From Phyllosticta citribraziliensis (lineage: Eukaryota): a DNA stretch of 64,000 bases. Of this stretch, positions 25,576 to 30,050 are shown piece after piece. The stretch lies in NCBI RefSeq assembly GCF_038025025.1, contig NW_027117342.1:868001-932000 (forward strand), given 5' to 3'. How positions within the stretch are numbered: position 1 is the first letter of the stretch; every line of letters starts with the position of its first letter. Position numbers and translations under genes: made by a program. The notes under the pieces are model-generated. The model was not told the DNA's origin. It ran no database searches and worked only from the letters and a program-made list of their open reading frames with translations.

Positions 25576-27079
25576 ATGACCGAAGGCTCGGAAAACCCGC
25601 TCATATCAACCACGAGAGCTTCCGACACCAGCCCGCATGTCCAACTGCACCCTCTGGTCCTCCTCACCGTCTCAGACTACATCACACGCCATACCCTTCG
25701 TCAACAAAGCGGTCCAGTGGTGGGAGCTATAATAGGCCAGCAAAATGGCCGCGAGATCACAATGGAGGTCGCGTTTGAGTGCAAGCTGATTCCTGGCGAG
25801 GATGGCGAGGCCAGAATAGATCACGACTGGTTCTGCACGCGCCTGGAGCAATGTGAGCTTTTCATGCTGGTGGCATATGTCACAAATCTTGCTAACAAGC
25901 GCCACAGACAAGACAGTGTACAAATCCCCTGCCTTGGACCTCGTCGCCTGGTTTACCCTGGGGGCACACACTGGACCTGCGCCGCACCACCTGCCCATCC
26001 ACGAATACATCCAGAACGTCCACAATGAAACGTCGCTTCTCCTCCTCTTCAACCCAGAATCCGTGCTAGAAGGCAATGCGACTGGTGGCAGATTGCCTCT
26101 TGGCGTGTACGAAAGTCTGTGGGAAGGCAGCAGCGGTAGCAATGACAAGGGGGCGGCAATGGACATTGATGGCGCAACACCGGGCCAGGGGAAGCAGCTG
26201 AAGTTCAGAGAGCTGACGTATGCCGTGGAAACTGGAGAGGCAGAGATGATTGCGGTTGACTTTGTGGCCAAAGGCGGCGGCAACGCCACGGAGATTCCCA
26301 AAGCTACGGCAACAGCAGGTCCCAGTGACGCAGGCAAAGGCAAGGGAAAGAAGAAGGCGGAAAACGTGAATGGTGCCATCAACGAGGACTCGGTCCCTCT
26401 CTCCTCGGAAGATGAAGAGCGTACGTCTTAGATTGAGCCCATACTGAGCATCTGCTAACGAAACGCAGTCCTTTCTAGCCTCACCGCAAAAACGAACGCC
26501 ATCCGCATGCTACGCACACGCGTCTCCCTTCTTCAAACCTACCTCGAATCGCTGCCTCCGAGCTACCTCACCGATGCGTCCATTTCCATGACCACCTCCC
26601 CCTCGGAACAACCGAACCACGAAATATTTCGCTCCATCAACTCCCTCGTCTCCCGCCTCCCGCTCCTTGAACCATCGGATCGTGAGACATTCGCCCGCGA
26701 AGCTGCCGAACAACGTTCTGATGTGGCGCTGACATCGCTCCTTGCTGGAATTACCGCCTCGCTGGCAGACGCCAGCCAGTTGGGCAAAAAGAGCGCCATT
26801 GTCGAAAATGCACGCCAGGCAAAGCTTATGAGCAGTGGTGGGGGACCACCTGGCCTGATTCGCGGCCCTGGCGGATTCGGCCGTGGCAGCGGAGCTTTTG
26901 AAGCAGAGAGTCTGATGGGTATGGGTGGCAACGGCGGAATGGGAGGCTCTGTCAGCGGTGGCTTTCCTGGCATGATGGGTTCGGGATCAGGTGGAGGCAG
27001 GAGTTTCGGAGGCCCTTTCATGAGTCCAGGAGACGGCAGGAGCGGCGTCATGAGCATGATGGGCCGAAGGGGTGGCTGA
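25576..27079 (+). CDS. csn6: COP9 signalosome subunit 6 (MPN- domain)
   Basis: VQLHPLVLLTVSDYITRH, VVGAIIGQQNGREITMEVAFE, LDLVAWFT, YAVETGEAEMIAVDFVAKG, NAIRML; two introns. Confidence 0.9.
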
Positions 27080-27565
27080 TGACTACGGCGCAGTGAGAAG
27101 GTTGAAGACTACGGTCAGGAGGCTTTTGTTGCTTGGGCAAGCAAGGCGTCTTTGGCGTCGGCTTTGTCGTTGAAAGATGGCTGGAAGGCATGGCCCATAG
27201 AGGCCGCTCACATTTTCGGAGGGTAATACCCATCTAACGTTGCTCTAATCAGGACTGCTTGCCCTCAGTAACGGTGAGCCTGAGTGAGCTGGGAGGACGA
27301 GCGACATCATCAGAATCTTAGGATGATGCATGGCAGCGGGAGAGGCAAAGATTTTGCTTCAACAAATTCACAGAGGGTCAAAGACATGAGAGAAAAGAGC
27401 ATATGCATTCAGCACAGAGACCGACAGATAGTCAAGTCGAGTAATGTAAAGACTAAGCACTTCCCGTTTCCTTCAACTGACAGGACTGCCGAAGAAGGCT
27501 GATGTTTCGCTGATGAGTATGAAAGTCCAGCCCTCAACCACTTTTGCTTCCTTGTCTGCGATCGA

Positions 27566-28260
27566 TCTCAACTCCTCCACATTCATACACTTTCGCCACC
27601 ATTGTCGCAAGACGTTCATCTATCCAAGCTACCAGATAACTGCAAGACCATCACGCGAATTTCCGACATGCTGAGTTGACAAACCACACGGCGCAAAGGG
27701 AGAGACAGGCAACGGGCAAGCAACGCGCCGATTCAACAAACCCCGCCATACCGCCCAAAGCAAGCAGAAGAATTAGACGCCAAAAACCAAGGCCAAGGTG
27801 CACAAAGTAAAAGAAAAAAAGGATGATCCCCCAGGATCTTCGACAGCCTGAACGAGTGAAGGCGTTAGACACGCTGGGAACCCACCCACCCAGGCTTTGT
27901 TGGAGAGAGCAGCCTCGGCTCTCATATGCTGTGCAACGAGGCGGAAGAGAAGGGGGCAGCGGCTGCAGGCGAGCTATCAGGCCAGCAGGAAACTGAAGAG
28001 TAAGGAAGAAGTTCAGGATATGAAATTGCGTCGGATTTTCCCGCAAGGGCCAGCAGGCGCGTGAAACGAGTGTGAGCCACTGACTCCCAGCAAAACCAAC
28101 CCACCCGGGCCTTGACGGTGGCAAGCGGCCCCGACTCGAAATGATGGTGCGGACGGAGGTCCTGTTGCGTCTTGTAGGCGGTGCGTTGTAGATTGAAGGG
28201 TGTAGATTGAGCGTTCTTAGATGAGGTTCGTAGATGTGCGGTGGAGAAGGAGAGTTGGAG
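27566..28260 (-). ncRNA. Candidate non-coding, structured transcript (class unknown)
   Basis: Promoter-like motif stack upstream (28278-28448), pyrimidine/CA-rich leader, no ATG-initiated ORF over 50 aa, nested complementary blocks; no family motif recognised. Confidence 0.35.
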
Positions 28261-28277
28261 AAAGGGGGAAGGCGAGC

Positions 28278-28448
28278 TTTTAAGCCTGCGAGGAGGTAGT
28301 GCTTGAGTCAGCGAATCGGCGAGTCGGAGGGTCCCTGGCCGTTGGTTTCTGGTGCTGTGGAGCGAAGATTTGGTCGAGGGGACGGAGTACGGAGGGCGAA
28401 GGGCGAAGGGACAAGGTGAAATTTTGGGTTAGGGCAGCGATCCATTGG
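28278..28448 (-). promoter_or_regulatory. Promoter-like module: CCAAT, Tbf1-type GCCCTAA, RRPE-like AAAATTTCA, TGACTCA, TTAAAA
   Basis: Read directly: ATTGG 28444-28448, GGGTTAGGG 28426-28434, TGAAATTTT 28417-28425, TGAGTCA 28304-28310, TTTTAA 28278-28283. Confidence 0.5.
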
Positions 28449-30050
28449 TTGATTGACACATCGGCCACACCTGAGACTCAACGAATGTGAGTAATGTAGA
28501 AACATTTCATAGAGTCTGCTGTCTCGCCGGTCCATATTTCTAGAAACAAAAGCACCTTATCAGAAGCAATATACACAGCTCAATGCTATCCACCATCGAA
28601 ATGACCTGATCATGAATCCCAGCATGATACGGAATTGGCGGAGTCTGGTTCCAAGTCTAATCTCTGACAAACCGGCAAACTAAACATGCACAGGTACAGC
28701 GGGACAAGAAGAGAAAATATTGGAGTGCGCAGCACCAAAAGAAAGCAGTGCACGAGGTTTACCATGTCATCGAGTTTGCTCCGTGTCATCGTCGGAGCGC
28801 ATATTGAAATGTAGGAAACCCAGGATAAACGTGAGGGGTCTATATAATCGATCCCAGCCGTTGCCACAGGCAAGCAGGCCGACGCGTGACTGTTCTCTTC
28901 CAACATACCGACAGTCTAGAGCTATCTCCCTGCTTGGGCAGTCTTCAAAAAGGCCCCGCTGCTACAGCGCTCTCACGACAAGTCGAAGTCGAAAATGAAA
29001 ATATTCAGGGGTAAGCACCGAAGGGGGCGCCGGTGGTCTGGCCGCCTATTTTGTTTCCTTCAGCGAAACTCAAAGGATGGGATTGTCATTCCTACGGAGA
29101 AATGTGAGCCAGCGACGTCCCATAATGGTGGTCTCACAGGGGCGAGCAACCCAGACGCGTGCGGTGACTGCGCCAAGAAAACACAAAAGAAGGCAAAAGC
29201 CAGTGATGCATGTTTTGTTATGGCACTGAAGCCGTCCAAGGAAACCAAGGAGGGCTGGAGCGAACTGAGGAGAGCAGTCTGCGGGACGGCGGAAGATCTT
29301 TTATACTACCCGGAAGTCAAGTCTGTCACATGCAGTCAGGGTCTTCGAACCTGCGAGAGGCGCACGGGGAAAGACTGAATCACGCGTGCAGAGCTTGACG
29401 GCCCGACAAGTGCATTTTGGCCTGTGAACGGAACCTCAAAAGAGCTGGCATATGTTAGTTGAATTAGCTACCCGCAGACAGGATATAGACGAGAAAAAGA
29501 CGGGTTGAGGCCCACGACTGCGACTCTCGAAATTTTTGAAGCGCAAGGCTGATAGAGTGTTGGCAGGTGTGCCTACATGGAACCTTGGCGTCATCGTCGC
29601 ATGTTGCTGCTGATCGAAATCAGGAAGTGAAACGGGTCCCGTCAGCAGATCGAAATGACGAGTACCTACCCATGCCGCTGAGGTGGAAGAAGTATTGGGG
29701 CAAGTGGGCAAAAGAAACAAGCCCGCTCATAGGGGATGTCGCAAAACAGATACAAAGTCGGCAAGTCCGTGACTTTTCTTTCGGGTTGTTTCTTGTTGTA
29801 TAGAGTTGTTGTCGCCGTGAGCATAGAGAAGAAAGGAGTGGCAGTGGGTGCTTTTATACCGAAGATTTAGGTACGAGCACATGCAAGCGGGAGCGTGTGG
29901 TCATTCAGTGTGTAGAAGATGCGACTGACTCTTCAAGCTTTTTGCTACAACTTTTGGCACCAGACCTCGCACCAGCCACAGTCCGCAGTCCGCAAACAAT
30001 CGTTATTCTTACCCTTCATATGAGCACCACCGTCTTACCATAATGTCTCT

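Follow-up and report, generated by a model that had tools for sequence, protein, structure and literature searches.

The region downstream of csn6 (COP9 signalosome subunit 6) in the 64,000-nt window analysed here (the whole stretch of DNA, in which an earlier note had flagged positions 27566–28448) is transcribed, shows no splicing in assembled contigs, is conserved in a related species, and has no match to a known RNA family or fold above chance. We give about an even chance to its encoding a lineage-restricted, mRNA-like lincRNA convergent with csn6, the effect of which, if any, would be exerted in cis on the csn6 3' end. The earlier note had proposed an unannotated non-coding RNA unit with a snoRNA-type promoter and a structured product; the ORF-poor transcription unit proved real, but its structure and promoter class had been over-read. 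The flagged stretch is single-copy in the source assembly (31.4 Mb; telomere repeat TTAGGG).

Transcription and orientation of the unit

The features of the locus that bear on transcription are the following.
25576–27079, plus strand: csn6 coding region, the convergent neighbour, with introns 25853–25907 and 26421–26468 and splice joints seen in contigs
27080–27467, plus strand: csn6 3' UTR within the extent of the X2 contig, with a putative end
27560–28378, minus strand: predicted non-coding transcript of ~820 nt, unspliced in contigs, its strand and 3' end both predicted
27848–27868, minus strand: CTAAC..CAG acceptor-like word (CTAAC at 27868, CAG at 27850–27848)
27581–27589, minus strand: TGTATGAAT, resembling poly(A) signals, which would place a 3' end near 27560

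The third exon of csn6 has full identity to a Csn6 protein recorded under the genus Phyllosticta, and to the right of the unit a 1.6-kb gap is followed by an MFS transporter gene on the minus strand. Three sequencing runs (X1, X2 and X3), available as assembled contigs and not as reads, cover the stretch, and all three are RNA, as the csn6 or MFS introns are removed in each. In X1, from the same organism, a single contig carries both csn6 splice joints, is unbroken across 26469–28378 and ends in adapter letters, and in X3, from a related organism, one contig spans the region unspliced. The presence of an unannotated transcript was thus borne out, though such contigs give neither strand, RNA ends nor level, and a contig over two genes is not equivalent to a single transcript. 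The unit is transcribed and longer than 200 nt, in keeping with the definition of a lincRNA. The acceptor suggested in the earlier note is present as a word, but splicing at it is absent from both contigs that cross it (X1 and X3).

The X1 contig has a mean depth of 2037, versus 67 and 201 for its neighbours, and depth arithmetic would place the region at ~6–7 times csn6, though contigs cannot rank genes. No X1 cover was found for 28379–29956, and X2 includes only trace contigs in the region (27596–27746 and 28259–28452; depth 2–4) versus a depth of 81 for csn6. An RNA that is poor in poly(A) or specific to a condition could explain the excess in X1; neither depth nor missing cover was used as evidence.

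Two further features lie around the X1 contig end.
28417–28448, minus strand: promoter-like words CCAAT (28448), GCCCTAACCC (28435–28426) and AAAATTTCA (28425–28417)
28374–28416, minus strand: pyrimidine-rich tract around a predicted upstream start at ~28378–28395

Together with TGACTCA at 28310 and TTAAAA at 28283 (minus strand), these words make up the motif stack described previously, and each was found at its reported place or within 1–2 bases of it. Within the 64-kb window, RCCCTAA (2 occurrences), AAAWTTTC (6), TGACTCA (3) and TTAAAA (5) all occur seldom, in contrast to the common CCAAT (98) and CTAAC..AG-type words (21). Tbf1 and RRPE are described as tied to ribosome-biogenesis and snoRNA genes in budding yeast in the source cited (PMC5416754), and the likeness of the unit to the promoters described there lies in an RCCCTAA word adjoining an RRPE-like word. 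However, GCCCTAA followed by AAAWTTTC within 30 nt occurs once in the genome, as does the reversed control (a tighter GCCCTAA and RRPE pattern occurs once versus 0 in the control). As the pair is single and equal to the control, it is not a recurring promoter module in this genome. The label of a snoRNA or ribosome-biogenesis-type promoter is a budding-yeast analogy that was not supported, given the control count and the position of the RRPE-like word in a block that is unaligned in the related species.

The A/T box (the AAAATTTCA region) is located 39–47 nt above the X1 contig end in the minus-strand sense, and transcription starts in Aspergillus nidulans are described as having pyrimidine enrichment from -50 to +25 and an A/T peak from -45 to -30 (PMC4046813). 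A minus-strand core promoter at ~28450–28375 would thus fit the stop of the X1 contig. The RNase MRP RNA gene of this genome also has an AAATTT word ~50 nt upstream followed by a pyrimidine tract, so that the unit has the layout of a housekeeping core promoter. As TGACTCA and TTAAAA both fall within the X1 contig, neither is upstream of its end, though a second start near 28255 could be served by TTAAAA. On the minus strand, the unit has a C/A-rich 5' quarter and a U- and G-rich 3' half. The minus strand is favoured because X1 ends in a pyrimidine tract below an A/T box, the first 452 nt are free of AUG, and the U-rich 3' half includes poly(A)-type words (TGTATGAAT, poly(A)-signal-like by the usual consensus).

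Plus-strand RNA of csn6 ending near 28378, as an isoform with a long 3' UTR or as read-through, with the minus-strand promoter a coincidence, would also account for the joining of csn6 and the region in a single X1 contig, for the UTR-level conservation reported below, and for the C-rich to G-rich skew, which is identical from either strand. However, no A/U-rich poly(A) words are found above 28378 on the plus strand, such words being found instead at 27443 (TGTA/AATGTA, 27443–27448), shortly before the X2 csn6 contig ends, and the promoter layout suits the minus strand, leaving this explanation improbable. The sequence GAGTAATGTA..AC is present twice (27439–27453 and 28489–28503, plus strand); the first copy, just above the X2 csn6 contig end, may be the csn6 poly(A) signal and the second a distal one.

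Conservation and coding potential

The sequence of the unit was compared with that of the related species (X3), and the frames on the minus strand were examined. The relevant features are as follows.
27801–28285, minus strand: conserved core of 485 nt, which differs at 36 sites and by 8 gap letters, starting at TTAAAA (28283) and ending just past a T7/T4 tract (27820–27809)
27717–27800, no strand assigned: diverged block of 84 nt, equal in length in X3, carrying the last codons of the 50-aa ORF
27773–27925, minus strand: 50-aa ORF, the longest started by ATG, with a hydrophobic end and no homologue found
27651–28307, minus strand: 218-codon stop-free frame with no ATG until 27749 and no credible homologue

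In the core, substitutions amount to 7.4%; the figure for the three listed blocks of intergenic DNA on the right of the unit is 15.2% (96 substitutions and 50 gap letters in 630 nt; Fisher p=5e-5), and gap letters number 8 versus 50 (p=1e-6), where only the three listed intergenic blocks were counted and four further aligned pieces fall outside the substitution count. Conservation beyond that of intergenic DNA, by which the earlier proposal could be judged, was thus found (36/485 versus 96/630), with one related species and its aligned blocks as the basis; 40 of 241 substitutions were visible, all in csn6 or to its left and so none in the unit. The aligned share is likewise higher in 27462–28331 (85%) than in 28332–29897 (42%). 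In two csn6 exons, 19 of 371 sites and 16 of 513 sites, respectively, differ from X3, as do 7 of 98 listed sites in the csn6 5' UTR, from which the unit appears to be constrained about as much as a UTR, the core being at the level of the csn6 5' UTR. The segment that holds GCCCTAACCC and AAAATTTCA (28285–28507) is unaligned, and 586 other letters stand in its place in X3. A core bounded by a TATA-like box and an oligo-U tract fits a discrete shorter RNA equally.

The first minus-strand ATG below 28378 is found at 27925, which agrees with the earlier observation that no protein gene lies downstream of the promoter words. However, the first 452 nt of the unit lack an ATG as do 81 of 1000 shuffles. 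Searches of the frames returned no exact protein record for any of 3 ORFs, no homologue of the 218-codon frame among 1314 candidates, no Pfam family for the three minus-strand frames tried, and no usable ESM Atlas match for the 50-aa and 57-aa ORFs. The one match among 1.84 billion proteins was rejected as chance, as it was the sum of seven copies of one repeat at 26 bits each.

A micropeptide mRNA, translated either from the 50-aa ORF (27925–27773) after a 450-nt AUG-free leader or from the 218-codon frame at a near-cognate CACC-ATC at ~28146, was also considered. The composition is mRNA-like, the leader is free of AUG, poly(A)-type words are present, and there is no deletion in 27810–27983 in X3. 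Against this, the last codons of the 50-aa ORF fall in the diverged block, the 218-codon frame has a 1-nt deletion at 28092 in X3 (insertions being outside what the alignment showed), and the searches that were run found no homologue, exact record or Pfam family, making a micropeptide rather unlikely.

Folding and comparison with known RNA families

One feature was central to the earlier proposal of a structured RNA.
27569–28257, no strand assigned: nested complementary blocks, 27569–27580 with 28241–28257, and three inner pairs

The four nested pairs and a hairpin at 27905–27923 are present in the sequence as listed. However, folding of 27560–28265 (706 nt) gave z=+1.55, a stability matched by 19 of 20 shuffles, and folding of 27560–28378 (819 nt) and 27810–28260 gave z=+3.3 and z=+1.45, respectively. 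None of 95 minus-strand windows of 80–200 nt was below z=-1.7. The best nested chain of exact helices of at least 6 bp amounts to 57 bp, a value attained in 8 of 300 global shuffles, in 30 of 300 made within 200-nt blocks and in 57 of 300 made within 100-nt blocks, and the duplex between the two 60-nt ends was matched by 59 of 500 shuffles. The fold is thus not beyond chance, the energy being no better than that of shuffles and the blocks falling within composition-preserving controls, and the claim of a structured RNA could not be upheld; nor could that of a hairpin milRNA precursor, as no long stable hairpin above chance was found. The caveat that the blocks might reflect strand composition was apt, as they mostly reflect a C-rich 5' part and a G/U-rich 3' part. 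As the blocks are Watson-Crick only, they are uninformative on strand. The RNase MRP RNA of this genome, used as a control, scores only z=-1.2, so structure of the unit is unsupported rather than disproved, and single-sequence folding has little power.

A G-U-rich stem of ~16 pairs (27845–27896, minus strand) around the CTAAC word recurs in both folds, in a window no stabler than shuffles. A 21-nt direct repeat (28094–28114 and 27879–27899, 18 of 21 positions alike), with GGGTGGG tracts on the minus strand, has both copies in the conserved core; its score was reached by 0 of 200 shuffles and by 7 of 77 window tiles.

Rfam at gathering score gave 0 matches in the window and 0 in 13 of 80 csn6 loci, and at E<=10 only an unrelated plus-strand element below its cut-off was recorded in the 861 nt at the locus. 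A further local Rfam search likewise gave only sub-threshold unrelated matches, 6 in number, so that the Rfam comparison, run as the earlier note had suggested, matched no family at the locus. Elsewhere in the genome, an intron-sized tRNA gene match (L098:525-637, contig C1 of G000; 113 nt, 50.7 bits) was seen, as was a 2,251-nt insertion in a large-subunit rRNA gene (G000:C11:356555-358805; L003:56-2306, minus strand). Within the insertion is an open frame of 480 codons that weakly matches a His-Me homing endonuclease (PF05551, E 8e-4, below cut-off); the insertion is probably a group I intron with its endonuclease.

Among snoRNA classes, no C/D guide (box C/D with at least 10 nt of rRNA antisense) was found on the minus strand, and the contigs show no splice joint in the region, arguing against a snoRNA host. 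The 21 rRNA antisense words of 10 nt or more that were found are at chance level. A long H/ACA RNA was also considered. The unit falls in the length range of such RNAs (snR86 is given as ~1 kb in PMC7601244 and PMC5824354), has ACA and ANANNA words, and carries an AAACCA at 28348 that is complementary to 18S. However, it differs from snR30/U17 and long H/ACA RNAs in having no m1, no ACA after the m2-like word, and no hairpin-hinge-hairpin fold or pocket above chance. The best pocket located 14–16 nt from an H or ACA box against the rRNA of this genome was 13 bp with 2 G-U pairs, which 35 of 64 control tiles reached, and that for the remaining large-subunit parts was 11 bp, while the candidate 3' hairpin (27435–27570) gave z=+0.57 and no stable windows were found. 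The defining feature of snR30 in the source cited is the placement of m1 and m2 on two sides of the 3' pocket, with m2 close to the ACA (PMC7601244). In this locus, the m1 word ATTCC is absent from both strands, and the minus-strand AAACCA has no ACA within 12 nt. The letters of m1 and m2 were checked against the 18S of this genome. With the best pocket within controls and m1 absent, the long H/ACA reading was not sustained. A search for snR30 elsewhere gave 8 pattern matches versus 5 in controls; none of the 6 scanned with Rfam was a hit and none of 2 read by eye (one among the 6) was convincing.

The unit resembles RNase MRP and P RNA in its C-rich 5' and G/U-rich 3' halves, its complementary ends, an AAATTT word ~50 nt upstream, and one CR-I-like word. 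However, the RNase MRP RNA gene of this genome is on another contig (G000:C2:838353-838806; L094, minus strand; 97.7 bits to RF00030), with AAATTTT ~50 nt upstream and a pyrimidine tract, and the unit was rejected as its locus. The only CR-I-like match in 27300–28500 is GGGAAAATCCGAC at 28043–28031; CR-IV and CR-V are absent from the unit (by the usual patterns for all three), there is no local RF00009 match, and words common to the unit and MRP RNA have BLAST E values of 0.6–7. The search for RNase P RNA elsewhere by RF00009 returned none among the 15 of 1791 candidates scored. The CR-I pattern gave 25 matches versus 19 in controls, 0 of 25 having a partner (20 of 25 scanned), and an MRP-P3-based pattern gave 2 matches, one of them MRP itself; these searches say nothing about absence.

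Three other candidates were rejected. The word CCCTAACCC is a template-like, 1.5-repeat match to the TTAGGG telomeres of this genome, but it lies ~50 nt past the X1 end, outside the contig and in the unaligned block, there is no local RF02462 match at E<=10, and the unit is ~0.8 kb, unlike the Pezizomycotina telomerase RNAs of ~2.0–2.4 kb described in PMC3592445. A genome-wide search with RF02462 under a stricter filter found nothing anywhere, the true gene included. Of the elements of a Pol III type 2 gene, a T7 tract (27820) and a B box with 1 mismatch (28141) are present, but by the usual consensus no A box stands at the expected place upstream. A hammerhead-like CTGATGA..GAAA (27510–27524, plus strand) is without stems by inspection.

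These results bear on the possibility that the product is a discrete and stable RNA that lacks a poly(A) tail and is of a kind either undescribed or very diverged. It would be ~440 nt long (TTAAAA to the T7 tract, Pol III-like) or ~690 nt long (the 28257/27569 helix) and act as an RNP scaffold or guide, with a diverged nuclear RNase P RNA as its extreme form. TTAAAA and the T7 tract delimit the conserved core, A7/T7 runs being found 7 times in the window; a near B box (TTTCGAGTC, 1 mismatch) is present at 28141, the CR-I-like word GGGAAAATCCGAC is found at 28043–28031, and the terminal helix resembles the P1 ends of the MRP RNA of this genome. However, the fold is worse than that of shuffles, no A box precedes the near B box, such B boxes occur at 4.6 per kb, there is no CR-IV, CR-V or Rfam family, and the words common to MRP RNA are of E 0.6–7. 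We regard a stable RNA of this kind as unlikely, and a bolder version, in which an abundant non-polyadenylated RNA outside Rfam of ~440 or 690 nt, with a ribosome-biogenesis-type promoter and conserved within Phyllosticta, would scaffold or guide an RNP via short conserved words, with a diverged nuclear RNase P RNA at its far end, as somewhat less likely still.

The csn6 locus in other fungi and a possible role in cis

The DNA of the unit was sought in 80 metagenome csn6 loci and no real match was obtained, the one match, of 20 nt, being due to chance and outside the unit. The upstream dehydrogenase is kept in the same arrangement in 9 of the 80 loci. Among 63 loci examined downstream, 11 ORFs encode an unnamed protein that starts with a Cys/His cluster and is convergent to csn6 (members include L006:4260-5528, L042:8083-9372, L044:6610-7920, L061:4913-6358 and L064:8072-9349, all minus strand). 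The invariant N-terminal Cys/His residues of this family form a possible zinc site, and no Pfam family was found for the one member scanned. None of the window ORFs to the right of csn6 matches any of the csn6 loci.

The unit could also be a relic of this convergent gene, its frame decayed and its promoter and end signals kept, as it has the same position and strand as the Cys/His gene in several metagenome loci and as a query with one Cys/His member found no match in this genome. However, a profile built from 8 members gave no match at the locus (its best window, with E 0.28, lies elsewhere), and the gene that comes next in the syntenic order is likewise missing from the window. The joint absence of a trace of the Cys/His gene and of the next syntenic gene points to a rearrangement breakpoint and not to decay in place, and descent from such a gene is very improbable.

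Returning to the lincRNA convergent with csn6, we infer its strand, ends, abundance, polymerase, polyadenylation and role in cis as follows. RNA polymerase II would start at ~28380 from a compact minus-strand core promoter made up of the A/T box and the pyrimidine tract, with a possible second start at ~28255, below TTAAAA. The product would be an unspliced, mRNA-like RNA of ~0.7–0.8 kb without a stable fold, with its 3' end near 27560, at a distance of ~100 nt from that of csn6, and the unit would fill the slot where other fungi carry an unrelated convergent protein gene. Its most likely role would be in cis, in that convergent transcription, together with the start and end signals, bounds the csn6 3' end and limits read-through into the gap, the RNA body being held only at UTR-level constraint.

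This reading has parallels in other filamentous fungi. The unit shares with the intergenic and 3'-convergent lncRNAs of A. nidulans described in PMC4046813 its paucity of ORFs, a pyrimidine-rich start region and an A/T box 30–45 nt upstream. Like them, it is found where a protein gene of the opposite strand ends, but it is conserved to the level of a UTR in a related species and its overlap with the csn6 mRNA is only putative. Such RNAs are also reportedly found in Fusarium graminearum and Trichoderma reesei. A loose query of the literature on Phyllosticta non-coding RNA found no paper on this locus, which points only weakly to its being absent from print.

The nuclear RNase P RNA gene of this genome would be worth locating, the searches made here being weak. 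Should the product be a discrete stable RNA, it would matter more, as the housekeeping RNAs of filamentous fungi are poorly catalogued, and a stable RNA without a strong fold would be one of a kind that all structure-based screens would miss. As a lincRNA, the unit would be a gain in annotation, adding to the conserved transcripts of a fungal genus one more that annotation lacks, and its cis effect on csn6 would be open to testing.
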